Assembly (NCBI GenBank): GCA_027858345.1
Contig: JAQICX010000182.1
Span: 273-64,272 of the forward strand
Reading direction: 5' to 3'
Source of the DNA: Kiritimatiellia bacterium
GTDB lineage: Bacteria > Verrucomicrobiota > Kiritimatiellia > JAQICX01
Length of the DNA: 64,000 nucleotides
The notes below the pieces were generated by a model. The model did no database searches, had not been told where the DNA came from, and was given only the letters and a program-made list of their open reading frames with translations. A program made the position numbers and the translations under genes. Of the stretch, positions 4,677-31,175 are shown piece after piece (position 1 is the stretch's first letter; each line of letters starts with the position of its first letter).

Positions 4677-4754
4677 CTTGTCTCCTTCTTAAATCTTATG
4701 GGCATAAAAAAAGTACGACAACAATGCCGTGCTCTTTTTAAATAAGAATATCAA

Positions 4755-7520
4755 TTATTGATTAGCCTGATCTGCTTCTTCCTGAAGCTTATCAGCAATC
4801 AAATCTGCACTTGAATCTTCAACTGGACGACCAGCTGGGTCAACAAGTCTTGCTGTAACAAAAATCAACAAGTTACGTTTTTCACTTTGGCTTGTTTTGC
4901 TCTGAAAGAATTTTCCAATAATAGGTATATCACCTAAAAGAGGAATCTTATCAATTGTGTCAACACGCTTTTCTGTAATCATACCACCCATTACAACAGT
5001 TGCACCATTATAAATTGAAATACTTGTCTGAACTAGTCTTGTGTGGAAGAAAGGTTGCTCCATATTAAGCTGTTGGACATTTCCTTCCTGATCTGTATAT
5101 GTAGTACCATAGTTTTTCCAATCAGGCTCTGTAACAACTTCTGGAGTCATATTTAGAGTAATCATTTGACCTTCAGGACTAACGTCTGGTTGAACAGTAA
5201 GAATCACACCAACTTCACGCATTTGAAAATCCTGAGGTTCAACGATACCACCAATGATAACCGCAGTATCATTAATAGCAGTCTGCCCTGTAACAGGAGT
5301 AACCGTATATGCAGTTGGATAAATATATTCTGTGACAACTTTAATTGTTGCTTCTTGACCTGTCTGAGTTGTAACCTTTGGAGATGACAGCAAATCAGCA
5401 TGACCTTTTTGCTCCAATGCATGAATAACAAGTCCAAGTTCCGGGTTTGTAAGAATACCAGCAATTGAAAGAACAGAGTCAGCAACGTTTGCAGCATCTG
5501 CAGTAACAACGTCAGACATAAATCTGTTACCAGTTGTAAAACCACCTGATGCACTATTAGCAGCAATATCTACTCTTGGCGCAGCTCCTGGAGCATAATT
5601 GCCATTCTTTGATGCAAGAGTGAAGTCATCATTAAGGAACCATTCAAATCCTAGAGAGTTCATATCCTTTTCATTTACTTCAACAAAACGAGCTTCAATT
5701 TCAATCTGGTTAGGGACAACATTTAGTTCATTAAGAATTCCTTCAAAATCTATTAAGTTATCTTCTGTGTTTGCAACAACAATTTTACCAATTGATCTGA
5801 TGTATTGAATTTGAGAACCAACAGGCCATTTAACTCCCATCTTCGTGAAAAACTCTTTCCAAGGAACAGCAGTTGCCTCCGTACCACCTGCATCACCAAA
5901 ACCAAAACCATCCCCAACTCCACCTGCATTCATTGACAACTCATTGCCAACTGATGGAATTTTATCTTCAACAGATGGTAGAACATCATATGTCTTAACA
6001 ATAATCTTGCCATCAGGAGCATCCGCTGGAACAATCATAACAACAGAACCATCAATTCTGTATTTCAATTTAGAAATTTCTGTAACAATATTTAAAGCCT
6101 CTAGCAATGATATGTATCTTGAACTAAATGTAATAGATTGTTGACCACTTGAATCTGCAACCGCTGTGGTTGGAATTGAGAACGGATCTGGCTCACTTGT
6201 CGTTGCAACAGGCTCGGCATCAGCACCAAGATTAAGAATTATATTTACACCTTTTTCTTCTTGAGGAGAATCTGATGTGTCATAGTCAATAGATGCTCGT
6301 TGTAAAAAGTCAATAACATCAACAATATTTGCCTGACGGAAATTTAACTCAGGTATAATAATGCTTTTCATTTTTTCTGCAATACGAACCTTTTTGTCGT
6401 CTGATATTAATATAGGCTTAGTATTCCGCATTTTATCGGTAGCGCCCTTGTTTACAGCAACATAGCTATCAGGACTCCATTTGTCTCTAACTTCAGCCAT
6501 CATATTAGCACGAGTTGCTTCTGCTTCTTTTGTATTAATTGTGTACTTGTTTCTACCACAAGTTTCTAATAATTTGATTGCATCACGATTATATGGTTCA
6601 AGAGCTAAAACACCCTCAAGCATTAGAACTGCTTCATCGTAATTACCAACAGCCATATACTGTTTTGCTTTCACAAGAAATAGATTTACATCTGTTTGAA
6701 GATCTTTGTAACTATTCTTCTGCCATTCAAGATTTGAATCTTTTTGTTCGACAACAGGAGGTGATTCTTGATACTCAACACATTTTTTTACAAGAGCAGG
6801 AGCTTTGCGGTAACCATACTGAGCTGATTCACGAGCATTGTTTTCTGCAATCTGATAATCACCCTGCTCCATAAGAATAAGTGCTCTCGCATAATATGTT
6901 TCGCCAAGCCTATTTGGAATCTGGTCTTTATAAACTCTAGCTTCTGTACTATTGTTCAAATATTTATTAGCTTCTTTATAAAGACGAATTGCTTGTGCAT
7001 ATCTTTCATTCTTATATGACTCTTCGGCTTCTTTAAAAGTTTTGATACCAAATAATGTTTCAGCCTCTTTTTTGTTGATTTCAAGCTGAATCATTGTGTT
7101 GATATCTGTTTCATCATTTGCAACAGTTGATACAACAGGCTTAACAGGCTCAGCTGTTACATCTGTAGCAAGATCACCAAAGCTGTTCATTGCTGCTAAC
7201 TCCTCTTCAGGTTCAACAGCAACTTCATCAGCAGTGGTTTCCGGCATGGTTTCTGCTTCATCAATATCCATTGTGACTTCTGGTTCGTCAAGATCAAGAA
7301 GATCGCTCACATCAGAAGAGCCGCCGGATCCAGGACTGTTAACTGTGACATCAACACTTGCATTCGTATCCGCTTTGTTCTCAACAGCAACAGGGCTGAC
7401 AGGTTCATCAAGCAACAAGTCTTCATCAAGCAAGAACTCATCATCTTGTGCAACAAGACCTTGAAAAGTTAATGCCGAACATACAACAGCTGTCAACATA
7501 AATATATTTTTCTTTGTCAT
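4755..7520 (-). CDS. Secretin (GspD/PilQ family outer-membrane channel) with signal peptide, long acidic N-terminal region and TPR-like segment
   Basis: 921 aa; signal peptide MTKKNIFMLTAVVCSALTFQGLVAQ; C-terminal secretin signature ...KIPLLGDIPIIGKFFQSKTSQSEKRNLLIFVTARLV. Confidence 0.8.
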   Translation of the reverse strand: MTKKNIFMLTAVVCSALTFQGLVAQDDEFLLDEDLLLDEPVSPVAVENKADTNASVDVTVNSPGSGGSSDVSDLLDLDEPEVTMDIDEAETMPETTADEVAVEPEEELAAMNSFGDLATDVTAEPVKPVVSTVANDETDINTMIQLEINKKEAETLFGIKTFKEAEESYKNERYAQAIRLYKEANKYLNNSTEARVYKDQIPNRLGETYYARALILMEQGDYQIAENNARESAQYGYRKAPALVKKCVEYQESPPVVEQKDSNLEWQKNSYKDLQTDVNLFLVKAKQYMAVGNYDEAVLMLEGVLALEPYNRDAIKLLETCGRNKYTINTKEAEATRANMMAEVRDKWSPDSYVAVNKGATDKMRNTKPILISDDKKVRIAEKMKSIIIPELNFRQANIVDVIDFLQRASIDYDTSDSPQEEKGVNIILNLGADAEPVATTSEPDPFSIPTTAVADSSGQQSITFSSRYISLLEALNIVTEISKLKYRIDGSVVMIVPADAPDGKIIVKTYDVLPSVEDKIPSVGNELSMNAGGVGDGFGFGDAGGTEATAVPWKEFFTKMGVKWPVGSQIQYIRSIGKIVVANTEDNLIDFEGILNELNVVPNQIEIEARFVEVNEKDMNSLGFEWFLNDDFTLASKNGNYAPGAAPRVDIAANSASGGFTTGNRFMSDVVTADAANVADSVLSIAGILTNPELGLVIHALEQKGHADLLSSPKVTTQTGQEATIKVVTEYIYPTAYTVTPVTGQTAINDTAVIIGGIVEPQDFQMREVGVILTVQPDVSPEGQMITLNMTPEVVTEPDWKNYGTTYTDQEGNVQQLNMEQPFFHTRLVQTSISIYNGATVVMGGMITEKRVDTIDKIPLLGDIPIIGKFFQSKTSQSEKRNLLIFVTARLVDPAGRPVEDSSADLIADKLQEEADQANQ

Positions 7521-7686
7521 AAAGATATAATCTCCATTTCTTCATTCTTTATTAAATGGGCAATGTTTCAAATCAAAACAAAATAACCCTATAACCTGTC
7601 ATTACAACAGGTGTTCAATCATAACTAACTGTTTATTATCAAGGACTTACAAATATTCCAAGATAAAAATCCTCTAAAAACTCTAT

Positions 7687-8703
7687 TTATTTCCCTTCAA
7701 AAACAAGGACTTCATCGTCATCAATGCGCTTTATTACTATATTTTGACCCGAGTTGTCAACATGAATAAACTGATATGGCTTATTTTTTAGCTTAAATGT
7801 ATCACCAGCACGTAATTTGAATTCTTCACCTGTGATGTTAAACTTAAGGGTTACAGTGTATTCTTTATACGCAGTACCTTTACCTTCGATAAGATCAATT
7901 TTTTTCCCGGAAGGAGATATCAAACGCAAAACATCTTTATCTCGCTCTCCCTCATTCTGAGCTTTTGCAGCACCTTTTCCAAAATTTGACAGTGTGAACC
8001 CTTCAACCTTTTCCCCGAGTTTCTTAAAATGAGTTCTATCACCATTCTTTAGATTTATCTGGAACATTCTAGATTTATCTGGTAGCAACGATGAACCTTT
8101 AAACAATAGATTAAATGGGTCAGCAACCACTGAAACAACTTTCAATTCTGTGTCTGGTGGTGGATAACTATTTGGATCCGATAGACTCGTATTTGACTTA
8201 AACTCAACAATGTTTGAGAATCCATCACCATCTGCATCAGCCATTGAATCATCAAGACGATGGTTTAAACCATGCTCTTTTTCATACATATCAGGTATTC
8301 CATCCTTGTCTCCATCATATTTTTCGTCAAGTGATCTAAGTGGTGGCTGTACTGTTTGACAAAAAGGACATTTCTTTGCAAAGTATGCTATTGGTATTTT
8401 GCAGTCAATACAAACAACTCTTGACTCTGGAACAAACATAGCAACATTTGTCCAACCTGGATCAGCTAAATTTAACTGATACGGATTTGTAATCTCTGCT
8501 ATTGTGTCCTCGTACTGAGAAACATCTAAAACAGATGCATTAGGGTTAGCCTTGGTGTAAGAAACAATCTCGTTTTCAACTTCAGCCATATCTTTAACAC
8601 CCTGCCCAACATTTATATATAGGTAGGCAGCTGTTGCCAACAAAGCAATAACCACCAATATTAAAATAATTTTATCATAAGAACTTTTTATCATAGAAAT
8701 CAT
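7687..8703 (-). CDS. Membrane-anchored hypothetical protein with CxxC...CxxC zinc ribbon and thrombospondin-type-3-like Ca-binding repeats (DGDKDGIPD, DADGDGFSN); pilus/secretion-cluster associated
   Basis: 338 aa; N-terminal TM helix; CIDCKIPIAYFAKKCPFC; acidic D-x-D-G-D repeats; sits between secretin and PilMN genes. Confidence 0.6.
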   Translation of the reverse strand: MISMIKSSYDKIILILVVIALLATAAYLYINVGQGVKDMAEVENEIVSYTKANPNASVLDVSQYEDTIAEITNPYQLNLADPGWTNVAMFVPESRVVCIDCKIPIAYFAKKCPFCQTVQPPLRSLDEKYDGDKDGIPDMYEKEHGLNHRLDDSMADADGDGFSNIVEFKSNTSLSDPNSYPPPDTELKVVSVVADPFNLLFKGSSLLPDKSRMFQINLKNGDRTHFKKLGEKVEGFTLSNFGKGAAKAQNEGERDKDVLRLISPSGKKIDLIEGKGTAYKEYTVTLKFNITGEEFKLRAGDTFKLKNKPYQFIHVDNSGQNIVIKRIDDDEVLVFEGK

Positions 8704-8714
8704 AATGCAGCACT

Positions 8715-9722
8715 CTACTTATCTTCTTGGTTATATGTTTTATCAAATCTGTAAACTTCAATACCAATTGTTACTTCCATTGGCACCTCCAACTCTAAAC
8801 CAGAAACTAATCTTTCTGGACGGGATAGCTCCTTCAGTGTAACACCATCAGCCAAGGCCTTTGCTTCAATCGTTGATGAAGGTAAGATTCCATTGTTAGG
8901 CTTTATAAATTTAACTGTTGAAACTCGAAGGAACATCTTTTCCTTTGAAATATTGTTCAAAATTTCTAAAGCACTCTGCATCTTTGCCTTAATCACGAAT
9001 TCAAAGTACATTTTTCCAAAAATTTCATTTCGAACAATCCTGCCTGTTTCAGGGTTTGTCATCCCCTGAACACTGTTAGCTTTTGGAGTAGGCTCACCTC
9101 CACGACTATTTCTTCCACGACGGCTGCTACGAGATCTACTGTCTGTTTCTTCCTCTTCAGTATCTGAAGTGCTGTTAACTTGAGACCCCTCAAAGAGCTC
9201 TCTTTTAATTGCTATAATCTCTTGTGGCTTAGCCTCACAAAATATAGTAACCAATCGTTCCACAAGAAACAGTTGCTGACCAAGTCTTCCAACATCTCTA
9301 GGTGCAGGAAGAGCATTGGCCTCAAAATACTTTTTGAAACCAAGATCAAACTCAGCTGGCATCTTAACATTATTCTCTCTTATAAGAGCAAACATCTCTG
9401 TTCTTTTCTCACCTAAAGTGGACATAAATGCTGATGGACTCTTCTGTACCGGCTCAACTTGTTGAGCAGCCAAGTTATTTAAAATGTCGTCAAACCATTT
9501 CTGAAGTTCTACATCATGTTCCTTGTATACATCAATATTCTCTTCTGTTGGAAACGGGTTGCTATCTTCATAAATTCTTTTGATTGAATCTTTAGCCCCG
9601 GTCATCTCCGACATTGCTTCATTGTAACCTAAAAAACCTAAAACAAGCATTGTGCCTGATCCAATAAGCATTAATGCACCAACCGCTATGGCGACCCACA
9701 AAACTATTTTTCCTGATTTCAT
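8715..9722 (-). CDS. Membrane-anchored hypothetical protein of the T4P-like cluster; positional and size equivalent of Akkermansia Amuc_1100-type pili-like protein
   Basis: 335 aa; N-terminal TM; charged low-complexity middle; gene order secretin-X-Y-PilM-Z matches Amuc_1098-1102 locus (recalled from literature, not verified by alignment). Confidence 0.55.
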   Translation of the reverse strand: MKSGKIVLWVAIAVGALMLIGSGTMLVLGFLGYNEAMSEMTGAKDSIKRIYEDSNPFPTEENIDVYKEHDVELQKWFDDILNNLAAQQVEPVQKSPSAFMSTLGEKRTEMFALIRENNVKMPAEFDLGFKKYFEANALPAPRDVGRLGQQLFLVERLVTIFCEAKPQEIIAIKRELFEGSQVNSTSDTEEEETDSRSRSSRRGRNSRGGEPTPKANSVQGMTNPETGRIVRNEIFGKMYFEFVIKAKMQSALEILNNISKEKMFLRVSTVKFIKPNNGILPSSTIEAKALADGVTLKELSRPERLVSGLELEVPMEVTIGIEVYRFDKTYNQEDK

Positions 9723-9735
9723 AATAAATCCTACC

Positions 9736-11403
9736 TTATCTGATTCTTATAGGGGTTTGCAAAGCAACATATATCTTAAATTTATGAGTGTAATCACCAG
9801 CAACAAGAGGTGGTTGCTCTTTTATTGCCGTGCCATCCGTAAATCCAGGAAACTCTTTTAGACGAGTTGTAAAAACCTCTAAAACAGTCGTATCACCTTT
9901 TACGATTGCCCTTGCTTTATCTTCAAAAATCTCACCCTCTATCTCAACACCGGCAGCCATTCCATTATTTACTACAGGCTTAAAGGATGTTAACCACATA
10001 CCTTCCAGCATAGCATTATGAACCCCGTCAAGAACCAATAACCATGATGTCTTTGATGCAACGAGATCTACAAGCTTTCCTACCTCTTTTTCCTCTGCTT
10101 TCTGAGCTCTCACAGCATCTCTAAGCTTCTTATCCAAACTCTCCAACCGTAACTTTTCATTCTCGATATTGATTGTGTTATCTTTTGCAAGAACTGTCAT
10201 ATGATGAAAATACCAAGCCCAGCAACTCATGGCAACAGCGGCAAGTACAACTGAAGCAACAAAGAATGGCCTACGCTTGCGCATTATTTTTTGTGCAACA
10301 ATTGATGCCGGCATCAAATTAATCTCAATAGGACATCCTCCTGCATACCTTACACCAAGACCAACAACCTCTCCAAGTACTGTAACATCAGCATTAAGCT
10401 GGTCGACAGAAATATTTGGTGATATACTTATACTTTTAAAAGGATTTAAATACTCAACATCAACACGAAGTTTTTCATTAAAAAAAGTATTTAAATGAGG
10501 AATAATCGAACTACCACCTGCAAGAAGAATTGATGTAGGAGCACTTCCTGACTGCTGACTTCTATAAAAATTTATAGATCTGTTAACTTCCGCATGTAAA
10601 CGTGTTAACACATTTCTTACTATCTTTGAAATTTTTTCTGTGTCAGGATCTTCTGACATAGAATAAACACCACCAAGTGCAACAACTGCTTTTTCTTTTT
10701 TGAGTTTTTCTGCCTCTTCAAAGGTCAAATTGAACTCTTTCATAATCTCTTGGGAGATTGTATTGCCAGCAACTGTAATACTACGACTAAAAACTTTGTT
10801 TCCTTCAACAAAAACAAGGTTAGTTGAACGCGCACCAATATCAAGAACCATTGTACAAGCATCTGTTGTTATTTCCGGATAACTCATTCTTACAAGATTA
10901 TAAAGTGCTAAAGGAGCCGTATCAATTATTTCAGGCTCAAGACCTAAAGTCTGAACACAGTCTGTCAGAGCTGTAACATTCTCTGTCTTAACAGCAACAA
11001 GCATAACCTTCTTTTCATCATCAAGACCATCATCAAGTAACTGATAATCCCAAACAACTTCGTCAATCGGAAATGGGACATTTTGTTGTGCTTCGTACTC
11101 AACAATTTGTTGAATCTTATCACCTTCAACAGGCGGCAACTTAACATAGCGCGGAAAAACTGCCTGGCCAGAAATAGACATGTATAACTGAACGCCAGAT
11201 CTTATACCACGCTCTTTCATTAGATCTCTTAAAGCTGATACTATATATGCAGATGAATCAACATTGCTTTCAGGTAAAACACCCAAATCTGCAACTCCAT
11301 AATTGATAAGTTCTGGCACACCATTCTTACGTGTCACAAACTCAGCAACTACAATTTTACTGGCACCAATATCAAGTGCAATCATTCTATCTGGACTAAA
11401 CAC
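9736..11403 (-). CDS. pilM: Type IV pilus assembly protein PilM (actin-like ATPase fold) fused to PilN-like C-terminal TM/coiled-coil domain
   Basis: 555 aa; N-terminal IALDIGASKIVVAEF... acetate/sugar-kinase/FtsA-like fold; after ~aa 365 a TM helix (FFVASVVLAAVAMSCWAWYF) and coiled coil typical of PilN. Confidence 0.75.
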   Translation of the reverse strand: MFSPDRMIALDIGASKIVVAEFVTRKNGVPELINYGVADLGVLPESNVDSSAYIVSALRDLMKERGIRSGVQLYMSISGQAVFPRYVKLPPVEGDKIQQIVEYEAQQNVPFPIDEVVWDYQLLDDGLDDEKKVMLVAVKTENVTALTDCVQTLGLEPEIIDTAPLALYNLVRMSYPEITTDACTMVLDIGARSTNLVFVEGNKVFSRSITVAGNTISQEIMKEFNLTFEEAEKLKKEKAVVALGGVYSMSEDPDTEKISKIVRNVLTRLHAEVNRSINFYRSQQSGSAPTSILLAGGSSIIPHLNTFFNEKLRVDVEYLNPFKSISISPNISVDQLNADVTVLGEVVGLGVRYAGGCPIEINLMPASIVAQKIMRKRRPFFVASVVLAAVAMSCWAWYFHHMTVLAKDNTINIENEKLRLESLDKKLRDAVRAQKAEEKEVGKLVDLVASKTSWLLVLDGVHNAMLEGMWLTSFKPVVNNGMAAGVEIEGEIFEDKARAIVKGDTTVLEVFTTRLKEFPGFTDGTAIKEQPPLVAGDYTHKFKIYVALQTPIRIR

Positions 11404-12056
11404 TATTTTATTACCTCATAACTATCAATATTCATAAATACAAAAGGTGACTCTTTTTTATTCAAAAGATACCCGGAACGAGGAATCAAAACATTACTCT
11501 CCATTATGCGAGGGTTGTTCCACCAATTATCTCCAAAAATTTGTCTCACAGAGTTAGCAACTTCTCCCGTAGCTTCAATCACTACACCATCAACACTTAA
11601 AATAACTGCCGCAGCAACCGCCTTACCATATCTCTTTTCTGCGTTAGGATGCAAAAATGCTGATGCAAAATGCTGTCTACCTTGCTCTACATCAATATAT
11701 GTAACGCTTTTCTTATATACACTGTATCTCTGAACATTCTTACCATCCTCACGTTCAACTTTCAAGGTAACAACAATATATTCAATCTTTAGTTCATCAA
11801 TCCACTCTGGTATTGTCTGATACTCAACATTCAAACGACGCCACTCGGGGGCTCTCCCTGACTTTGAAATTCCTGGCTCATCCTGTATACCATAACTAGG
11901 AGTTTTCACAAGGTTCTTGGAGTCGCTCAACGCACTAAAGCTTTTCAACTTCAACGGTGGTGGTTGTTGTTGATTTTGCTGAGCAAGTGCAACAGAACAA
12001 ACACTTACCAACATAACTACTGTCATAAAACTTCTTAAAACTCTAATATTCATCAT
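11403..12056 (-). CDS. Secreted hypothetical protein, first gene of the T4P-like cluster
   Basis: 217 aa; signal peptide MMNIRVLRSFMTVVMLVSVCSVALAQ followed by Q/P-rich stretch; start overlaps PilMN stop (11403). Confidence 0.55.
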   Translation of the reverse strand: MMNIRVLRSFMTVVMLVSVCSVALAQQNQQQPPPLKLKSFSALSDSKNLVKTPSYGIQDEPGISKSGRAPEWRRLNVEYQTIPEWIDELKIEYIVVTLKVEREDGKNVQRYSVYKKSVTYIDVEQGRQHFASAFLHPNAEKRYGKAVAAAVILSVDGVVIEATGEVANSVRQIFGDNWWNNPRIMESNVLIPRSGYLLNKKESPFVFMNIDSYEVIK

Positions 12057-12385: not shown

Positions 12386-12418
12386 AAAAAAAAGCGGAAT
12401 TCAAAAACAAATTCCGCT
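12386..12418 (-). terminator. Rho-independent terminator downstream of the RRM-protein gene
   Basis: Minus-strand reading: perfect 8-bp stem GCGGAATT / AATTCCGC (12394-12418) followed by U8 (plus-strand A8 at 12386-12393). Confidence 0.8.
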
Positions 12419-12472: not shown

Positions 12473-12859
12473 TTATCTAGCCTTGGATTTGGCTTCATTT
12501 ACAACAAGCTTGCGACCTTTAATGTCCTTGTCATCAAGGTTTTCAATAGCACGCTGTGCTTCTCCTCGGTTCGGCATTTCAACAAAACCAAAACCTTTTG
12601 ATTTTCCGTTTTGTAAGTTCGTAATAATTCGAACATTCTGAACTGCACCATATTTTTTGAAAATTTTACGCAAATCACCTTCTCTTACATTGTAAGAGAG
12701 ATTACCTACATAAATCTCAACACATCTATTTTTACTTTTTGCTTTGGCCGGCTTACTCTTAGCATTCTTGCCCAAAATAATACCAACTAAACAAAATACT
12801 GCAGCCACAACAACATTAATTAAAATATTTGCAGCATCAACATCTTCTAATCCTAACAT
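12473..12859 (-). CDS. RRM-type RNA-binding protein with an N-terminal hydrophobic (TM-like) segment
   Basis: 128 aa; C-terminal RRM with RNP2 IYVGNL and RNP1 KGFGFVEM; N-terminal ILINVVVAAVFCLVGIILG hydrophobic helix; only in-frame ATG is at 12859 with AGGA RBS upstream. Confidence 0.75.
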   Translation of the reverse strand: MLGLEDVDAANILINVVVAAVFCLVGIILGKNAKSKPAKAKSKNRCVEIYVGNLSYNVREGDLRKIFKKYGAVQNVRIITNLQNGKSKGFGFVEMPNRGEAQRAIENLDDKDIKGRKLVVNEAKSKAR

Positions 12860-12888: not shown

Positions 12889-14931
12889 CTATTTGGATTC
12901 CAAAAAACCTTCCAGCTTCTTTAGTCGCGTCGGATGACGTAACTTTCGCAAAGCCTTTGCTTCTATTTGTCTGATTCTTTCTCGAGTTACATCAAATTTT
13001 TTACCAACCTCTTCTAACGTCCTAGAGTAACCATCTGTTAATCCAAATCGATAATCCAAAACAGACTGTTCTCTTTCCGTTAATGTTGATAAAACTATCT
13101 TTAAACGATCTCTAAGTATACTGTATGCAGTCATTTCCGATGGATTATCTGCTGTTTTATCTTCAATAAAATCACCAAAATAAGCATCGTCTCCATCACC
13201 TACCGGAGCCTGAAGCGATATAGGTTGTTGTGCCATTTTATAAACAGCCCTAACGCGTTCAACCGGCATATCCATCTCTTCTGCAGCTTCTTCAGGAGTA
13301 GGCTCTCTACCAAGCTCTTGAACAAGTTTTTTCTGAACCCTCAGCAATTTGTTGATTGTCTCAATCATATGCACAGGGATTCTAATAGTTCTCGCCTGGT
13401 CTGCAATCGCACGAGTTGCAGCCTGACGAATCCACCAGGTTGCATAGGTGCTAAATTTATAACCTCGGCGATATTCAAATTTCTCAACTGCCTTCATCAG
13501 ACCAGTGTTACCTTCTTGAATAAGATCAAGAAATGACAAACCTCTGTTCATATATTTCTTAACAATACTTATAACAAGCCTAAGGTTAGCTTCAACCATT
13601 TCTGTTCGAGCCCTCTGACCTCTTTTCATCCACTTGGACAACTCCTTAAGGCTAACAACCAAGTCATCAACCGGCATGAGAAATTCTAATTCATATTCAT
13701 TTAACTTGTTTTGAAGCTCAATAACACCTGAATCTCTTTTTTTGCTCTTTCTTTTTTCTTCAAGTTTTTTGATTGAGTTTATAATATCATAAACAGACTT
13801 ATATTTAAGACCTGCCTCTGCTGCCATAATCTCAATAACCTTTTGCTTGAAATGCAAAGATGCATAAACATCCACAGCTTTATCTCGCCGTTTCTCAAAA
13901 ACCTTCTGTTTCTTCTTGAAATCAGCTGCACTTAACGAGTGGTTTGACGGCACGTAAGCAGAATGCAAAGATTCTTCAGCTCCAAGTACAGCTTTTTTCA
14001 AGCCAACCATTTGCTCAATATACTTATCCCTACTATCAACAACTTTATCAATCACAACTCTGTCAAAACGCTCTTCTGAATTTTCAAGCTGAGCCAAAAC
14101 ATCCATATACATCTTAGGGGCAAAACCAAATTTGTTAAATATAGTTCTAACATTAAACTCTGCCTCTTCAATTCTTTTGCAAATCTCTACCTCTTTTTCT
14201 CGCGTTAAAAGAGGAACTTGTCCCATCTGGTGCAAATACATTCTTATAGGGTCGTCAATATCAACTCTAGATGTCTTGCTACCAGCTTTTTTCTTGTCAA
14301 ATTTCTTGTACTTATCACCCTCTGTAGACTCAAAAACTTCAATCTCCATGGATTTTAAAATACGCAAACAGGCTTCGATTCCCTCTGCATTAATCATCTC
14401 CGGAGAAAGATATTTGTTGATATCGTCAAAAGTTAAATAACCTTGATTTCCCGCCAACCCAATAAGAGTTTTTAAACTCTCTGCTTTGGTTGTTGCTTTG
14501 GTAGCTTCCTCCAGTTGAGCAAAATCAGGCTCAACATCTCTTAAACCTTCAGGAATAACTGTTTCGTCCAGTAATGCTTTCTTATGAGTCTCTTTTTTAG
14601 GAGCTTTTTTCGTACTTTTCTTAGGAGCAACCTTAGCTTTAGGCTCTTTCTTCACAGGAATTGATTTGGCTTCGCTTGTTAATACCTTCTCCAAAGCTGG
14701 AGAAGTAGTTTTTGTGGCATTTTTTACCGCAGGAGCTTTAGCTCCAGCAGCATTTTTAGTCGTAGCTTTTTTTGTTGATTTTGCGACCGATTTACTCTGG
14801 GAAGGCTTAGCCTTTGAAGAAGTCTGCTTCGCGACCTGGCTTTTTCTGGCCAGTTTTTTAGCAGCTGTTGCTTTAGTTGTCTTCTTTCCTACAACTTTAT
14901 CTTTTTTCTCTTCTGGTTTACCTTTTGGCAT
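12889..14931 (-). CDS. rpoD: RNA polymerase primary sigma factor RpoD (sigma-70) with ~150-aa Lys/Ala-rich histone-H1-like N-terminal extension
   Basis: Regions 1.2-4.2 clearly present (…[54 protein letters not shown]…, …[28 protein letters not shown]). Likely start [10 protein letters not shown] at 14931 (SD AGAGGG upstream); ORF-track start 15015 adds 28 dubious residues. Confidence 0.9.
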
Positions 14932-15302
14932 AAATAATTCACCCTCTTTTGCTTGTTGATTTCCAATAAACCTATATATTATACCAACAATACATAAATT
15001 TAGTCTCTTTTGCAACTGTTTTTTTTCATTTTTCAGTTTTTTTCACAATATATGACACGCATTTGCCATTTTTTTCCCTTTTTCAATAAAGAATTGCAGT
15101 TACAGTGCACATTAATAACCATAGAGTGGTTAATAATTATATGAGCCTAATATCAATAAGGATATAATTACAAAAAAAATTATCCCGCATATTTTATGAG
15201 ATTACTTTTTGCATTGTTTTCAAGCGTTTGTCAAATCTTTTCAATTTTTATTTTTGTTATCGCATTTCTTAAGTATCAAACAACACTTCCAAAACAAAAT
15301 AT

Positions 15303-15540: not shown

Positions 15541-16392
15541 ATGAGTAATAAATTTTTGTTCTGCGTAATAACACTTTCTTCTTTTGTTGTTGCATCATCG
15601 GCTTTCGAGCCAGCATTTAAACTTGTCCAGCCAGAAGGTAAAGTCAAGATTCAAACACCAGCTTCAAAACGTTCTGAAACACCGAGAGTGGATCAGGCTT
15701 ATGCTTATGGAAGCACAATAACAATTGAAAAAGGTTCATCTGTTAACGTAATATTGGGCAATGGTAGCTCTGTTAAACTTACAGGTGCTGCAGTTGTAGG
15801 CATGAAAGAAGACGGTGACGAAAAAATTATTGATCTAAAATCAGGTAAAGCTGAATTCAATCTTGCAAAAGATAGTGGGAAACTCAAAGTTCAATCAAAA
15901 GGAATTGAAATTTCACCTGTCTCTGCTGGTACTTTTACTGTAGATGCAAGAAGATCATATTCCTTCAACTCTGTAGGAATAGTTTCTGACACTGCACAAG
16001 TCGCTGTTAAAGGCGATCAATTCGATATTAAAAAGTTTGGACCTAAATCAGAACTATCAATTTCATCAGCTTCTGATGGTTCTTACTCAAAAATTCAGGT
16101 TCCAAAAGGTAACCTAAACCTTACATTTGATACCGACGATGGTGATAAGAATGTTAAAGTTGAAAAAGGCGAAACAGTTGCAATATATCGCAAAGTTTCA
16201 AACCTTGGAATCACAGTTGTTTCAACTGTTATAATAACAGGTGCTGACTCAACAGTTAAACAACAGTTTTCATTCTCTAAAAAACTAAAAAAACGAATTC
16301 CAATTAATCCAGCGTCTACTACTACGACTACTACAACTACTACTACAAGTTCTACAACTGTAAAGTCGCCTACACCAGTTGGTGAAAGATAA
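15541..16392 (+). CDS. Secreted hypothetical protein (FecR-like beta-rich periplasmic domain?) with C-terminal poly-Thr/Ser tail
   Basis: 283 aa; signal peptide MSNKFLFCVITLSSFVVASSA; ends PASTTTTTTTTTTSSTTVKSPTPVGER. Confidence 0.6.
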   Translation: MSNKFLFCVITLSSFVVASSAFEPAFKLVQPEGKVKIQTPASKRSETPRVDQAYAYGSTITIEKGSSVNVILGNGSSVKLTGAAVVGMKEDGDEKIIDLKSGKAEFNLAKDSGKLKVQSKGIEISPVSAGTFTVDARRSYSFNSVGIVSDTAQVAVKGDQFDIKKFGPKSELSISSASDGSYSKIQVPKGNLNLTFDTDDGDKNVKVEKGETVAIYRKVSNLGITVVSTVIITGADSTVKQQFSFSKKLKKRIPINPASTTTTTTTTTTSSTTVKSPTPVGER

Positions 16393-24949: not shown

Positions 24950-26314
24950 TCAATGCTCTAGAATTTTTCCTGTGGATGCATTGAGGTTTTCTATTGCAAG
25001 AATTCTAGACAATCGTTCTCTTGCCAAAGCTGACTCTGCTGCAACAGCGTCTGTTTGCACTTGATTCAACCGAGTCACAGAAACAAGACTGGCGTTATAC
25101 TCTTCCGTGACAACATTCTCTATCTCATCTGCCAACCTATATATTTCATCACTCTTCTGCAACGACAAATTCTGAATTTCAAGATTATCACTTGCTACTC
25201 TGACATCTGCAACAACATCAATCTGAGTTTTTCTGTACAAATCAGAAGCAGCTGAAGCATCTGCTTTTGTTGCTCGAACTTTCCCGTGTCTCATACCACC
25301 ATCAAAAAGATCCCATGATGCCACCACACCAACAAATGCTTCTGTATTTTCATCTTTGTTTAGGGCGTCAGTATCATCAACACCATTATATCCATAACGA
25401 CCTGTTGCAACTACAGTAGGCATATAACTACCTTTTTCTGCAGATACAGCTGCTTCAGCTTGATCCAATTCAAGCTCTTTCTGCAAAAGATCAGGACGAT
25501 GATCCACCGCATATAATATTTCTTTATCAAAATCCACTAAAAATTCTTTATACTCCTGCTCAAGATTTGAAACTGATTGAACATCGTTTGTAACAGTTCC
25601 ATCGTCAACCCCCATGAGTCTAGCCAAAGCAATTCTGGCTTGACGTTTAGACAATTCTGCAGCCAGTGCCTGGTTTTCAGAAGCAATTTTACGCATTTTA
25701 AAATTCATCACATCAGATCTTGATGCGGCACCTGCAAGATTTCTATCGCGAGTTTCTTTATAAAGCACCTCGTTCAACTTTGCAGTTTCAATTGCAATTC
25801 TCTGTTGTTCTCCGGCAAACAATACAGCCAAGTATGCTTGAGAAACTCCTTGAAGAAGAAGTCGCTGTGCATCAAGAGTAGAGTTTTCGCTTATTTCTTC
25901 TCCATATTTCGCAGCCATTATCCTATATTTACGGGATAAGCCATCAAATAGCAGCCATGAAACATCGACTCCTGCCTTATAATTGTCGTGAGAGCCTAAA
26001 GCTCCTTGGGAGCCGGGCACTTCTTCCATTCTGTAGGCTGAGCCATAGGCACTAACGGTAGGTAACCAAGCAGATTTTGCCTGTTGAGCAATCGCAGATG
26101 CAGCCTCAATACGTGTCATTGCTGCTTGCAGTCCAGGATTTCCGGACAAGGCAATTTCTTTTGCCTGTTTCAGTGTGAGAAGTCCATTAACAACCTCCCC
26201 TTTTTCTACAAAACTATCAGGTATACTTGCTGAGTCTTGAGCCGAAAGATTACTCACTGTCATAGGCAATGACAACCCAATTAAAATTATTATTATAGAT
26301 ATTTTATCTTTCAT
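24950..26314 (-). CDS. Outer-membrane efflux factor (TolC/OprM family) with its own signal peptide, currently in frame with the upstream RND gene
   Basis: C-terminal 454 aa of the 1476-aa ORF; begins MKDKISIIIILIGLSLPMTVSNLSAQ (signal peptide) and shows OMF coiled-coil/barrel repeats (…LFDGLSRKYRIMAAKY…, …LFDGGMRHGKVRATKADASAASDLY…). Confidence 0.75.
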   Translation of the reverse strand: MKDKISIIIILIGLSLPMTVSNLSAQDSASIPDSFVEKGEVVNGLLTLKQAKEIALSGNPGLQAAMTRIEAASAIAQQAKSAWLPTVSAYGSAYRMEEVPGSQGALGSHDNYKAGVDVSWLLFDGLSRKYRIMAAKYGEEISENSTLDAQRLLLQGVSQAYLAVLFAGEQQRIAIETAKLNEVLYKETRDRNLAGAASRSDVMNFKMRKIASENQALAAELSKRQARIALARLMGVDDGTVTNDVQSVSNLEQEYKEFLVDFDKEILYAVDHRPDLLQKELELDQAEAAVSAEKGSYMPTVVATGRYGYNGVDDTDALNKDENTEAFVGVVASWDLFDGGMRHGKVRATKADASAASDLYRKTQIDVVADVRVASDNLEIQNLSLQKSDEIYRLADEIENVVTEEYNASLVSVTRLNQVQTDAVAAESALARERLSRILAIENLNASTGKILEH

Positions 26315-29300
26315 AATTTTCTTTTTTCCTCTTCGTGTTCCAAAATCATAAAGTATAGGGACAACAAACAGTGTCAATATACCCGAAATCAAAATGCCAC
26401 CAGCGGAAGCAATACCAACACCATTTCTGGCTTCAGCGCCTATTCCTTGAGCCAAGCCCATTGGCAGCATGCCAAAGAAACCGGCAAATGTAATCATAAT
26501 AATTGGTCTCATCTGATCTCCAGCAGCAGTAATCATTGCTTTATGTACAGGCATTCCTTCTCTAAGATGTACATTGAGTTGTTCCATAATCAAAATTGCA
26601 TTGTTCACCACAATCCCAATAAGCATAACTATGCCCATAATCACAAACACAGATATACTCTCATTCATCAATAATAACGCCCAGAACACACCAATCAATC
26701 CAAGTGGAAGTGTAACTAAAATTAATGCTGGTTGTTTCCACGACTCCATAATCGCAGCCAGTGTCAAAATAACCAAAATGATAGCTAACAAACCTGCTTC
26801 ACCAAGACTTGCCTGGCTCTCTGCCATGTTTTCTGCATCGCCAGAAAAAATAATTTCATACCCAGGTGGTAAAAGCTGCTCTTTGTCAACATATGAAGCA
26901 ATAACCCCAATAGCTATTCCAAGAGGAAAATCAGGATTCAAATTACTTGTTAATTTTGTGACTCGCCTTTTGTCTCTACGAAGAATCTGCACAGGAGTGT
27001 TGACTTCCTCAAAATTCACAAACGATTCAACCGAAACTGGTTTGCCAGGAAGTCCCGGAACAGAGAATGATTTAACTTGATCTTTGCCTTGTATTTCTTC
27101 ATATTTAACAACAATATCATAATTTCTGTCACCTTGTTTAAATGTGCCAATCTCAATACCTTCAAGATTACCTCTCAATGACATTCCAAATGTAGTTGCA
27201 GAAATACCAAGATCACTGAAAATTGCTCTCTTAGGAAACATTTTGAGCTTATTCTTGCCCAGACGTACTGATGTGTCAACGTCGCTAAAGCCTGGATAAT
27301 TTTCACAATACTGCTTAATATTTAAAGATAAAGCATTAAGAACATCCAACTCATCACCAACAATATAAGCCTCAACAGGTGTGCTGATGCCTCCAATTAA
27401 CGATGGGATAAACGCCCCGGTTAAACAATCGGTTATACCCGTCAATCTGTTTCGAACAATCTCAAGCAAATCATAAATAGTTGCATCTCGTTCATCCCTT
27501 TCCAAAAATTTCAATTGAACTTGCCCAAGATATACACCTTCCGATGCCTGACCGGCAATACCTTGAATTTTGCCAACAGTCACTAGACTACTTGTAAGTC
27601 CTGGCAAATCATCAAACAGTTTTGCAATTTCCAGAACACGTCCAACGCTGTTGTCCAATGAATATGAGGTAGGAAACTCTAAACGAACTGTAATTGAACC
27701 CTTATCCAGATCAGGAAAGAAACTGCCACCAACAGCCTTTGCCGACTTCAAGGCAGACATAAACATTAAAACTACCGCAATAATAAAAAGTATTGCAAAA
27801 ATCTTTCTTTTTTCAAACAAACGCAATAGTTTTCTATATGCGCTGATAACCTTGTCAAGTCCGGCATTGAACTTGTTTTCAAAAAATGCAAGAACACCCT
27901 TGTTTTTTCGACTTGTTAAAAGCTTTGCACATAACATTGGTGTTAATGTGAAAGATATAAAGAGTGATACAAGAGTCATAATAAGCATTGTCAAAACCAA
28001 TGGTTTAAGAAACATTGCAACCATACCGCCCATCATAGCAATAGGAAGAAGCACAACACAATTTGTTCCAGCTGACGCTAAAACAGGAAGCCAGGAATCT
28101 GAGGCTCCAAGTCTCGCTGCCTCTTTTGGATCTTTACCCTGCGAAATGTGCTTGCTTATTGCCTCCATAACCACAATGGAATTGGTTACAAGAATACCCA
28201 CACTCATACCAATTGATATCAATGTTGACATATTCAATGTATAATTCATTAGCCCCATAAAGAAAAGACCAATAACAATCGTAAGTGGCATTGTTATACA
28301 TACAACAAACGTTGTTCTAATATTATAAAGAAACAAAAATAGAATCAATCCCGTGAGCACAACACCCATTGCAACATTTTCCCAAGCACTATCTACAGAT
28401 GCCTTGATAAACTTTCCCTCATCATTAACCCACTTAAGATCCATTCCTCCTGGTAATTGCTCCTTCAATTTTGAAAACTCTGACCGAACAGAATCAACAA
28501 CTTCAACAGCATTTGCATCCGCAAGCTTAACAATTTCAATTGCTATGCAAGATGCACCATCGAGAAAAGCCTTTTGCCTAATCTCTTCAGTTGTCATGAC
28601 AGCCTTGCCAACATCTTTCAAATATACCCGCTTACCATCAACATTTGCAACTTCCAGTTCATTAAAGTCTACAACTTCCAAAGGGTCAGCATCAAATTCA
28701 ACAGTATATTCAAAACCATTATCTTTGACTCTACCTGATGGAATCAAACCAATTGCTGAATTAATATTTTGAGCTACTATTCCAGAGGTCAGCCCTCTTG
28801 CAGCAAGTTTATCTCTATCTATAAGAATATGAACTTCACGCTTAGCACCACCAATCAGCGTACACTCTGCAACACCTGCAATGGACGACAACCGGTCTTT
28901 TAAAGTATTATCAGCATAATCATACAGATCGGCAATGGGCAAATCACCAGTCAATGCAAGCTTCACAACAGGAACGGCATTAACATCAAATTTTTCCACG
29001 ATAGGATCTTCAACCCCTGCAGGGAAATCACCAGCAATTAAACCAATTTTTTCTCGCACATCCATCGCTGCAATATCAATATCTGTACCATATTCAAACT
29101 CAAGAAACGTAAAGCACACATTTTCCATAGCTGTTGACTCAACATGTTTAATGCCATTGAGAGTCATCACTTTATCTTCAATTCTCTTTGCAACATCAGT
29201 CTCTATCTGTTCAGGACTTGCTCCGGGAAAAATTGTTTTAATCGTAATGATCGGTGCATCGATACTCGGAAGCATCTCCAAACCCATCTTACGATAAGTA

Positions 29301-29380
29301 TTGAACCCTAGTAAAACCAGGGCAATCAACAAACAAGACATCGCAATAGGACGCCTAATTGACGCATTTGATAAAAACAT
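26315..29380 (-). CDS. RND multidrug efflux transporter (AcrB/HAE1 family); lacks a stop codon and reads through an A6 tract into the OMF gene
   Basis: N-terminal 1022 aa of the 1476-aa ORF; 12-TM RND architecture, MFLSNASIRRPIAMSCLLIALVLLGF..., ends ...FGTRRGKKKI then MKDK. Confidence 0.85.
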
Positions 29381-29392
29381 AATTATAACTCC

Positions 29393-30550
29393 CTATTTAC
29401 GAACATTTATGCCTGTGTCATCATTAAGCAGAAATTGTCCTTCAACAATAACCAAATCACCAGTCTTAATAGATTCGTCAACGACTTCTGTCCAACCATT
29501 AAACTCCAAACCAGTTTTAATTGGTACAAGCTTTGCAACTTCACCATCTGCAACAAAAACTACATCACCTGTTTGTTTCTTAATGATTGCCTTAGTTGGA
29601 ACCCCAATACCCTTGGATTTACCAAGTTGAATAACACCACTAATCAAACTTCCTGGGGCAACCAGTTCGCTATTTACCAAATCTGCTTTAACTTCAAAAA
29701 CCCTTAACATATTATCAATTGACGGAGCTTTATAGCTAAGCACATAGTCTCCCTCCTGCTTCTCATTTGAAAAAATCATTAACTTTGTTGTTCCTGCATT
29801 AATATCTGAATAATACTGAGATGGAATATAGAAAGATGCTTCAAGCTTGTTTACACTCTCAATTTTGAACACAGCCTTACCTGTCGTGCCCATATCTCCA
29901 ACATAATAAAATGTTTCAGACACAACTCCGCTGATTGGTGCCTTCACAACAGTATCGGACAAGTTCTTTTTTGCAATTTCCAGTGCGGCTGCTGCCTGAG
30001 AAACTTGCTCTTTTGAGAGCTGAATCAATGTATCTGCATGTTTTACAGATGCTTTGGCCTGCAGCATACCTGATTCCAACTTTTCAATTGTATCCAAGGT
30101 TCCAACCTGCTTTTCATCATACAATTTTTTTTGTCGTTTGTAATCAATTTCAGCTTTATTTAAAACAGCTTCAGCCTGTTCTTTTAAAGCCTCTTTTTCA
30201 TTCACAGCACATTTTGCAACCGCAAGTTCCTGTTTAGCAAGAATCATAGCCTGCTCAGTTTTTATTGCATCAACTGCAAACAACTTAGTTTTATCTTTTT
30301 CAACAGCATCGCCCTCGTTCACAAAAAGCTCTGTAATCGTTCCGGATATACGTGGCGTAACCATCGCAACATCTTTGGCCTCAACCGAACCTTCAACACT
30401 AATGTTATCCTCAAAATCCATGATTTCTCCATTCGCAACAATAACAGGAATTGACTTCTTCTCAACTTCTTTAGCCACTTCTTTTTTTCCGCACCCAACA
30501 AATGCCAATAAAACTGCCAATAACAAAAATTTAATTATTTTACTCATCAT
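29393..30550 (-). CDS. RND efflux membrane fusion protein (periplasmic adaptor, HlyD/AcrA family), lipoprotein
   Basis: 385 aa; lipobox LAFVGCG; coiled-coil hairpin and beta-barrel domains. Confidence 0.85.
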   Translation of the reverse strand: MMSKIIKFLLLAVLLAFVGCGKKEVAKEVEKKSIPVIVANGEIMDFEDNISVEGSVEAKDVAMVTPRISGTITELFVNEGDAVEKDKTKLFAVDAIKTEQAMILAKQELAVAKCAVNEKEALKEQAEAVLNKAEIDYKRQKKLYDEKQVGTLDTIEKLESGMLQAKASVKHADTLIQLSKEQVSQAAAALEIAKKNLSDTVVKAPISGVVSETFYYVGDMGTTGKAVFKIESVNKLEASFYIPSQYYSDINAGTTKLMIFSNEKQEGDYVLSYKAPSIDNMLRVFEVKADLVNSELVAPGSLISGVIQLGKSKGIGVPTKAIIKKQTGDVVFVADGEVAKLVPIKTGLEFNGWTEVVDESIKTGDLVIVEGQFLLNDDTGINVRK

Positions 30551-30563
30551 TCTTATCTCTCTT

Positions 30564-31175
30564 TTAATTATTATCTTTTATTCCTAAATTAATACTATTT
30601 ACTAAAACATCTATAACCTCATCTGAACCAGGACTATTCTCAGGATTACAAATTAACTCCATAATCAATTCCATAATAATCAGACCAATCATCCATGCAC
30701 GAGTTTCAGGGTTGTCCACAATCCACCCCTCTTTCTCTATACCATCTTTAAAAAGTGACAAAAATACCGCTCGCTTTCGATCAATATGCTGTTTGCGTTG
30801 CTCTGATAAAACAGGAAACTCCTTTTCAGCCCCAACAAATAACAACAACCAGCTCCTGTGAGTCTCTGCAAATTCAAAATGAGCTCGAAGATATTTGATC
30901 AACCTTTCCCTTGCCGACAAACTGGCATCTTCAAGAATAGGATCAAAAAATGCACTCGCCCTTTTGTTTATATCTTCAATTATAGTTAAAACCAAATCTT
31001 CCTTAGATGAAAAATAGTTATATAAAGTTCCCTTGGAAACCCCCGCTTCTTCTGCAATATCAGACATTTTCATCTCATATAATGTAGTCCCCGAAATCAG
31101 CCGGCATGTCGCAGCACAAATCTCGCTGCGCATCATCTCTTCAACTTTGCTCTTCTTCTTGTCTATTAAATTCAT
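30564..31175 (-). CDS. TetR/AcrR-family transcriptional regulator (likely efflux-operon repressor)
   Basis: 203 aa; N-terminal HTH (…MSDIAEEAGVSKGTLYNYFSSKEDL…). Confidence 0.85.
   Translation of the reverse strand: MNLIDKKKSKVEEMMRSEICAATCRLISGTTLYEMKMSDIAEEAGVSKGTLYNYFSSKEDLVLTIIEDINKRASAFFDPILEDASLSARERLIKYLRAHFEFAETHRSWLLLFVGAEKEFPVLSEQRKQHIDRKRAVFLSLFKDGIEKEGWIVDNPETRAWMIGLIIMELIMELICNPENSPGSDEVIDVLVNSINLGIKDNN

Follow-up and report, generated by a model that had tools for sequence, protein, structure and literature searches.

A likely PilP/GspC-type connector with TSP3 repeats and a Cys4 motif in the Amuc_1102-1098-like operon of a Kiritimatiellia bacterium

Which part does a small, presumably membrane-anchored protein with thrombospondin type 3 (TSP3) repeats and a four-cysteine (Cys4) motif play in a gene cluster for a pilus-like secretin machine? 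The question is raised by an open reading frame (ORF) at positions 7687–8703 (minus strand) of a 64,000-nucleotide stretch of contig JAQICX010000182.1 from a Kiritimatiellia bacterium, which as a whole is called the window here. The ORF list and the translation give an ATG start and 338 amino acids (aa) followed by a stop codon. The identical protein (100%) is recorded as a hypothetical protein of a Kiritimatiellae metagenome-assembled genome (MAG). The initial annotation had described an N-terminal transmembrane (TM) helix, a CIDC...CPFC motif, two DxDxDG motifs and a beta-rich C-terminus encoded within a pilus/secretin cluster, and had suggested a periplasmic, Ca-dependent component that replaces PilO/PilP. 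All of these elements are present in the ORF, and its location inside a PilM/secretin operon was borne out. The analysis described here makes it likely that the target protein is a PilP/GspC-type connector of a type IV pilus-like machine specific to the Planctomycetes-Verrucomicrobia-Chlamydiae (PVC) bacteria, namely the machine of the Amuc_1102-1098 or MUL2 clusters.

The target protein is a MAG-derived addition to an already catalogued family and an already recognised cluster, and does not represent a new kind of system. The complete coding sequence (7687–8703) matches the NCBIfam model NF042425 (Amuc_1099 family pilus-like system protein) with 77.5 bits and an E-value of 1.3e-21 (cut-off 50), aa 6–323 being aligned to model positions 2–319 of 321. 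The protein resembles the Amuc_1099 family not only in this full-length match to a hidden Markov model but also in its length (approx. 320–340 aa) and in the position of its gene between an Amuc_1100-like gene and the gene of an Amuc_1098-like secretin; verrucomicrobial relatives carry the family name at NCBI. A genome scan with one genome per species, which was keyed on the DxDxDGFSN motif and is therefore biased towards it, provided 80 loci. Comparison of the ORFs of these loci using phmmer identified 52 loci with a family-sized homolog adjoining PilM-like, Amuc_1100-like or secretin genes; the remaining loci encode unrelated giant TSP3-repeat proteins. NF042425 matched 50 out of 50 aligned syntenic homologs (best E 8.6e-73). 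In all 44 loci that extend far enough downstream, the homolog was followed by a secretin gene starting at −73 to +495 bp, and a PilM-like gene was located upstream of it in 42 of 42 loci, demonstrating co-occurrence with secretin-PilM clusters across PVC genomes. According to the record titles, the loci derive from Kiritimatiellia, Lentisphaeria/Victivallales, Verrucomicrobiae (Prosthecobacter, Verrucomicrobiaceae), Chthoniobacterales/Terrimicrobiaceae and a Ca. Methylacidiphilales MAG. The domain combination had been considered unusual for a pilus-assembly operon. In fact, it is what operons of this type normally encode in PVC bacteria, as the gene is the regular fourth gene of Amuc_1102-1098 clusters and is modelled by NCBI as NF042425.

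The C-terminus of the target protein was assigned by structure comparison. In the AlphaFold2 model, aa 187–338 consist exclusively of beta strands with a predicted local distance difference test score (pLDDT) of approx. 90, the mean of the whole model being 80.8. This region comprises two lobes, lobe 1 formed by aa 187–265 (7909–8145, minus strand, as for all segments of the target gene) and lobe 2 formed by aa 266–338 (7690–7908). The best structural matches were periplasmic secretin-binding domains. According to the models, at least one HR-type domain is present at the C-terminus, and two such domains probably follow each other in tandem. Lobe 2 is predicted to be an HR-like domain of the PilP/GspC type, and lobe 1 is probably HR-like as well. 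When a profile of the C-terminal family region was compared with the PDB, the HR domain of OutC/GspC (2lnv_A) was the top match. The same structure ranked ninth of 12 with the full-length profile. The matches were non-significant (E 0.37–0.47 for the two profiles) and mapped to the first lobe (approx. aa 196–247). Below E 0.1, Pfam searches with the target protein returned nothing but noise.

Two known connectors are suitable for comparison. PilP is a lipoprotein of the type IVa pilus alignment subcomplex in Pseudomonas aeruginosa, Neisseria meningitidis and Myxococcus xanthus; its partners are the N0 domain of PilQ and the PilN/PilO heterodimer. GspC (OutC/PulC/EpsC) is an inner-membrane protein of type II secretion systems, which binds the secretin at its N0 domain by means of an HR domain. 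The target protein shares the C-terminal HR beta-sandwich fold with PilP, as judged from the predicted structure. In contrast to the lipid-anchored PilP, it is TM-anchored by prediction and lacks a lipobox, does not match Pfam PilP (PF04351), carries inserted Cys4 and TSP3 elements and probably contains two beta lobes instead of one. Like GspC, it is a predicted bitopic inner-membrane protein with a periplasmic HR domain. It differs from GspC in the missing match to Pfam T2SSC (PF11356), in the additional TSP3 and Cys4 inserts and in the C-terminus, which ends with the beta lobe and gives no match to a PDZ domain or coiled coil. Moreover, its operon is PilM/N/O/Q-like and not a gsp operon. The most fitting description of the target protein is that of a functional PilP organised like GspC, with a TM anchor, without lipid and without PDZ domain.

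This description agrees with the operon, in which the target gene is the fourth of five co-directional genes on the minus strand, the middle genes being 11–13 bp apart. The first gene (11403–12056) codes for an Amuc_1102-like protein of 217 aa that reached 57.4 bits with NCBIfam NF042424 (cut-off 55) and matched Amuc_1102 in the PDB (7dsz, E 7.5e-7). It is followed by a gene for a PilM-PilN fusion of 555 aa (9736–11403; Pfam PilM_2, 1.2e-44), which scored 511 bits with Amuc_1101_fam and did not reach the cut-off of 650. PDB matches of this protein were PilM (3jc8_Ma, 9.4e-40) and an engineered PilM-PilN fusion (5eou_A). A PilM fold (aa 7–355) precedes the sequence EINLMP, a TM helix and a periplasmic domain of approx. 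170 aa, with the motif located at approx. 10240–10380. EINLMP is the N-terminal PilM-binding motif of PilN. The natural fusion mirrors the engineered chimera of PDB 5eou. The third gene (8715–9722), directly upstream of the target gene, encodes a bitopic Amuc_1100-like (PilO-like) protein of 335 aa. It matched NCBIfam NF038287 with E 1.5e-22 and 80 bits, under the cut-off of 180 bits. As a PDB sequence search returned no meaningful match for this protein, its likeness to PilO is based on the NCBIfam match and on the literature, where Amuc_1100 has been reported to resemble PilO/PilN (bioRxiv 10.64898/2025.12.30.696933). Directly downstream of the target gene, the last gene (4755–7520) encodes a secretin of 921 aa, the presumed docking partner. 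It was recognised by Pfam Secretin (1.2e-38), scored 430 bits with NCBIfam Amuc_1098_fam (cut-off 750) and matched PilQ and GspD in the PDB. An N0-like stretch in this secretin, '...ALNIVTEISKLKYRIDGSVVMIVP', aligned weakly with the corresponding region of Vibrio cholerae PilQ.

Judged by these matches, the five genes form an operon homologous to Akkermansia Amuc_1102-1098 (MUL2), and the block reads [Amuc_1102]-PilM/N-PilO-PilP-PilQ. The gene order places the target gene in the pilP slot of a pilMNOPQ arrangement. Of the proposal that the protein replaces PilO/PilP, the PilP part is therefore in line with the position in the operon. In contrast, the protein does not stand in for PilO, as the slot of the latter is taken by the Amuc_1100-like neighbour and PilN is fused to PilM.

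The N-terminus of the target protein is short and basic (MISMIKSSYDK) and is followed by the hydrophobic helix IILILVVIALLATAAYLYIN. Residues 1–11 (8671–8703) are predicted to be cytoplasmic and contain the family motif [FW][LI][KR]xHY[ED]K, here MIKSSYDK. Among 50 homologs, Y9 is found in 41, [ED]10 in 49 and K/R11 in 43 sequences, and this conserved peptide might contact the PilM-like ATPase-fold protein. The segment IILILVVIALLATAAYLYIN (aa 12–31, 8611–8670; approx. 20 residues) is a predicted TM signal anchor as judged from hydrophobicity and from the AlphaFold model, in which an unbroken helix extends from aa 2 to aa 52. Direct reading of the N-terminus revealed neither a lipobox cysteine nor an AxA-type cleavage site, and the target protein contains no cysteine before residue 98. 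The positive-inside rule and the need of HR domains for the periplasm suggest an N-in/C-out topology, by which the bulk of this bitopic protein would be periplasmic, in agreement with the periplasmic component initially proposed. A (pre)pilin or pseudopilin was considered and rejected; the N-terminus MISMIKSSYDKIILIL... lacks a Gly-Phe junction as well as the G-1/F+1/E+5 signature. Residues 32–94 (8422–8610) form a helix and a linker of low confidence, both predicted to be periplasmic. Block-mean pLDDT values range from 40 to 73 in this poorly conserved region and fall below 50 at aa 76–93.

The linker leads to a zinc-ribbon-like knuckle pair at aa 95–118 (8350–8421) with the spacing C98-x2-C101-x10-C112-x2-C115. 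The corresponding sequence RVVCIDCKIPIAYFAKKCPFCQTV (CIDC-x10-CPFC) contains all four cysteines of the target protein and is modelled by AlphaFold as a small beta ribbon with short strands at aa 95–97 and 104–106. Two repeats of the TSP3 Ca-binding type with invariant D/G columns follow at aa 128–172 (8188–8322). The first motif, DGDKDGIPDMYE, covers aa 130–141 and the second, DADGDGFSNIVE, aa 156–167, corresponding to a spacing of 26 residues. The Asp motifs are conserved and of the TSP3 type, consistent with the Ca-binding-type repeats seen by the initial annotation. The MtsD TSP3 region of NCBIfam matched aa 122–172 (E 0.0024). Pfam TSP3_bac (PF18884) did not match the target protein itself even at E<5 and matched 36 of the 50 homologs. 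In an alignment of 14 homologs with identities down to 26%, C101, D130/132/134/G135 and D156/158/160/G161/F162/N164/E167 were invariant and C98/C112/C115 were at least 90% conserved. This near-invariance over such a range of identities indicates that the Cys4 and Asp motifs are more than chance. The TSP3 repeats probably bind structural Ca and the Cys4 knuckle probably binds structural Zn; given the predicted periplasmic location, disulfides may be an alternative to Zn.

As the genome scan was biased towards the TSP3 motif, the search was repeated with profiles devoid of it. A profile of the C-terminal domain (A2) retrieved 19 proteins including seven new ones, all seven of which carry two DxDxDG motifs. 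A second profile (A4) was built from members of the Verrucomicrobiota outside Kiritimatiellia and Lentisphaeria, with the 12-residue TSP3 core deleted. It retrieved 264 proteins; among the 120 listed matches, which are close relatives of the Prosthecobacter/Verrucomicrobiaceae members of the query, NCBI uses the name "Amuc_1099 family" for many, and 113 contain the second repeat in the form DxDxDG[FL][ST]NxxE. Amuc_1099 of A. muciniphila was recovered with neither profile. Across the 50 homologs, the columns of this repeat (DxDxDGFSNxxE) and of the T-x-P-x-D...P that follows are invariant. Since motif-deleted profiles still retrieve motif carriers, the second TSP3 repeat appears from these sequences to be the hallmark of the family. 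Kiritimatiellia and Lentisphaeria also possess an intact first repeat, which in Verrucomicrobiae has decayed to a remnant, "HPPIPNxWL". An exhaustive search with the family profile matched thousands of giant TSP3 proteins through the TSP3 segment alone. These multi-repeat proteins swamp the counts, from which the size of the family is consequently not readable; usable were 51 family-sized proteins within the best 150 matches.

The cysteine motif is distributed differently. It is complete in the clade of the window and, with a longer insert, in many Victivallales. Several Kiritimatiellales, among them Pontiella, have only one 'CPF' left, and Verrucomicrobiae lack the motif, with no cysteine at all in 95 of the 120 listed A4 matches. 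Within the 51 family-sized representatives from the exhaustive search, 40 contain CxxC...CxxC. Zinc-ribbon families of Pfam matched the homologs weakly (UPF0547 in 13 of 50, Zn_ribbon_3 with a best E of 3.8e-4, DZR), and the zinc-finger matches of the target protein were below threshold (E 0.17). Taken by its sequence distribution, the Cys4 ribbon appears to be real, lineage-restricted and dispensable, the latter pointing to a structural and not a catalytic role. Hence, the target protein combines a full Cys4 motif with two intact TSP3 repeats, whereas Amuc_1099 proteins of Verrucomicrobiae have the second repeat only and no Cys4. The initial annotation had named as its own counter-case a PilO/PilP fold over the whole length together with non-conserved Cys and Asp motifs. 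What was found lies in between: the PilP-like fold is limited to approx. 65–150 aa at the C-terminus, and conservation is seen for the Asp motif and, in part, for the Cys motif. With bacterial TSP3 proteins such as Myxococcus MtsD and CglD, the target protein shares DxDxDGxx[DN]xxE twice, and the NCBIfam models of MtsD and CglD match within the family. In contrast to such proteins, which typically are giant multi-repeat proteins of the surface or periplasm with 1,100–5,900 aa and 9–49 matched stretches, it carries a two-repeat module in a small machine component.

Taken together, these features suggest how a connector of this kind would work. The short conserved cytoplasmic peptide and the single TM helix would anchor the protein in the inner membrane, the remainder being exposed to the periplasm. 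The helix and the flexible linker would lead to the four-cysteine knuckle and then to the two TSP3 repeats. Zn and Ca bound at these sites, or disulfides within Cys4, could make the linker from the membrane to the HR domains stiffer or act as a spacer in it. In analogy to the GspC-GspD and PilP-PilQ pairs, one and probably two C-terminal HR domains would dock on the N0 domain of the secretin encoded next to the target gene. The inner-membrane platform of PilM-PilN and PilO-like proteins would thereby be coupled to the outer-membrane pore.

Several results weigh against a PilP/GspC-type connector. Pfam PilP and T2SSC remained unmatched at E<5 in all 50 members, and no significant sequence-based link of the target protein to PilP or GspC was obtained. 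Foldseek comparison of the full-length model with the PDB gave nothing at E<0.01 and weak matches to Tudor-like or propeller structures. The two beta lobes aligned to each other with hhalign probabilities of 8.5% and 1%, leaving a duplication unsupported at the sequence level. Furthermore, the structures are predictions, and the second model is of moderate confidence (pLDDT 74). Finally, the Amuc_1098-1102 proteins of Akkermansia are abundant in the cell envelope and were found in outer-membrane-enriched fractions (PMC5332112), which is not an obvious match for an inner-membrane anchor.

A function other than that of a stable connector is conceivable for an inner-membrane-anchored protein with an HR-like domain. 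It might be a GspB/OutB-like or pilotin-like assembly factor that binds the secretin only transiently and helps to target, assemble or anchor it without being a stoichiometric connector of the working machine. We regard this as unlikely. The fractionation data could also be reconciled with a Ca-dependent adhesin or surface accessory of a pilus-like structure, the TSP3 and beta domains of which bind glycans of host or particles, with an N-terminal hydrophobic segment that serves as a pilin-like anchor or is cleaved off as a signal. Huge surface proteins of bacteria often carry TSP3 repeats, the cluster proteins of Akkermansia were enriched in the outer-membrane/cell-envelope fraction with Amuc_1100 localised outside the cell (PMC5332112), and a role in attachment has been proposed for MUL2 (PMC13174399). 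However, the hydrophobic segment of approx. 20 residues runs on as a helix to aa 52, and the N-terminus has no AxA-type cleavage site, lipobox or G-1/E+5 prepilin signature. The target protein is also small with two TSP3 repeats only, and its best structural matches are secretin-binding domains of the periplasm. An adhesin is very unlikely on these grounds.

The bitopic topology and the long helix after the TM segment are reminiscent of PilN and PilO, and the operon is pilMNOPQ-like. Nevertheless, the predicted fold largely refutes the idea that the target protein replaces PilO/PilN as the dimerisation subunit of the inner-membrane platform, which makes this role highly improbable. The CPFC sequence raises the question of a periplasmic thiol-disulfide oxidoreductase with a redox-active CxxC. 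The identical protein is labelled 'thiol-disulfide isomerase' by JGI, and aa 96–131 gave very weak thioredoxin matches (NCBIfam TrxA, E 0.091; Pfam Thioredoxin, E 0.22). These matches lie far under the cut-offs and span only approx. 30 residues, and the AlphaFold model contains no thioredoxin fold, aa 95–118 forming the small beta ribbon. Moreover, most Verrucomicrobiae lack the cysteines and Kiritimatiellia have lost them in part, with the remainder of the protein still conserved. An oxidoreductase is thus hardly credible, and the JGI label was apparently transferred in error on account of the CPFC motif.

The Amuc_1098-1102 (MUL2) cluster has attracted broad interest, and Amuc_1100 is a therapeutic candidate. 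The MUL2 locus has been linked to mucin acquisition in Akkermansia, and amuc_1099 and amuc_1100 were still termed "uncharacterized" in 2026 (PMC13174399). The PilP/GspC-type HR fold, the adjacency to the secretin and the invariant TSP3 repeat complete the reading of this cluster as a disguised pilMNOPQ alignment complex, composed of a PilM-N fusion, PilO-like Amuc_1100, PilP-like Amuc_1099 and PilQ-like Amuc_1098. The HR fold provides a structural rationale for a family termed uncharacterised in the accessible literature, and the range of MUL2-type clusters is widened to Kiritimatiellia and Lentisphaeria. In addition, the TSP3 motif and not the Cys4 ribbon marks the family, a predicted periplasmic Cys4 being a feature of the branches formed by Kiritimatiellia and Lentisphaeria. 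Mutagenesis can be aimed at the HR lobes, at the DxDxDGFSN motif and at the Cys4 ribbon. For the window itself, the outcome is chiefly an improved annotation.

A more far-reaching variant of the PilP/GspC-type connector can be drawn from the same features, and we consider it quite unlikely. The Amuc_1099-type protein would be more than a passive analogue of PilP, namely a metal-tunable strut of a PVC-specific envelope machine (MUL2) devoted to the import or capture of glycans and not to building a classical pilus. How long or how rigid the link is would depend on the occupancy of the invariant TSP3 repeat by Ca2+ and, in Kiritimatiellia and Lentisphaeria, likewise on the Zn or redox state of Cys4. 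The tandem HR lobes would engage two partners, for example two secretin paralogues or the secretin and the PilN/PilO-like platform, and PilM would be informed through the conserved cytoplasmic HY[ED]K peptide.

Two observations on the distribution of the clusters were made in the scanned loci. Downstream of the Amuc_1099 homolog, two tandem secretin genes were present in 15 loci, in comparison to one secretin in the window. These loci, located between L021 and L053 in our numbering (e.g. L023:9313-14436 and L037:8659-13504), belong to Lentisphaeria and several Verrucomicrobiota, and the arrangement points to secretins that are hetero-oligomeric or stacked. MUL2-type loci, complete or nearly so, were also found in MAGs labelled Methylacidiphilales (L037) and Terrimicrobiaceae/Chthoniobacterales (L024, L062), and were widespread in Kiritimatiellia and Lentisphaeria. 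In a 2026 survey, MUL2 was not detected in Methylacidiphilales (PMC13174399).

Terminator-like hairpins mark both boundaries of the operon in the window. The upstream one (12393–12418, minus strand) has an 11-bp stem followed by a T run and belongs to the preceding gene, which encodes a protein with an RRM domain. The downstream one (4715–4730, minus strand) lies 3′ of the secretin gene and was detected by a pattern scan as a consensus match only. An AT-rich gap of 166 bp (7521–7686) separates the target gene from the secretin gene, compared with 0–13 bp between the other genes of the operon. It contains a weak promoter-like site with 9 of 12 matches on the minus strand (7571–7544), and the secretin may be controlled by an internal promoter or a regulatory region located here.

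Beyond this operon, a minus-strand ORF of 1476 aa (24950–29380) combines an AcrB-type RND (resistance-nodulation-division) transporter and a TolC-like outer-membrane factor in one polypeptide. Pfam ACR_tran matched aa 4–1011 with 702 bits, and Pfam OEP matched two stretches from approx. aa 1070. A pump fused to its own outer-membrane factor is unusual. The fusion gene adjoins genes for an HlyD-like adaptor (29393–30550) and a TetR regulator (30564–31175). The RRM-domain RNA-binding protein encoded ahead of the operon (12473–12859, minus strand; 128 aa; Pfam RRM_1, 1.5e-23) has a hydrophobic, TM-like start. A sigma-70-like protein of 708 aa (12889–15015, minus strand) carries an N-terminal extension of approx. 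150 aa rich in Lys, Ala and Thr. On the plus strand, a FecR-domain protein (15541–16392; Pfam FecR, 5e-7) ends with a perfect run of ten Thr residues followed by SSTT.

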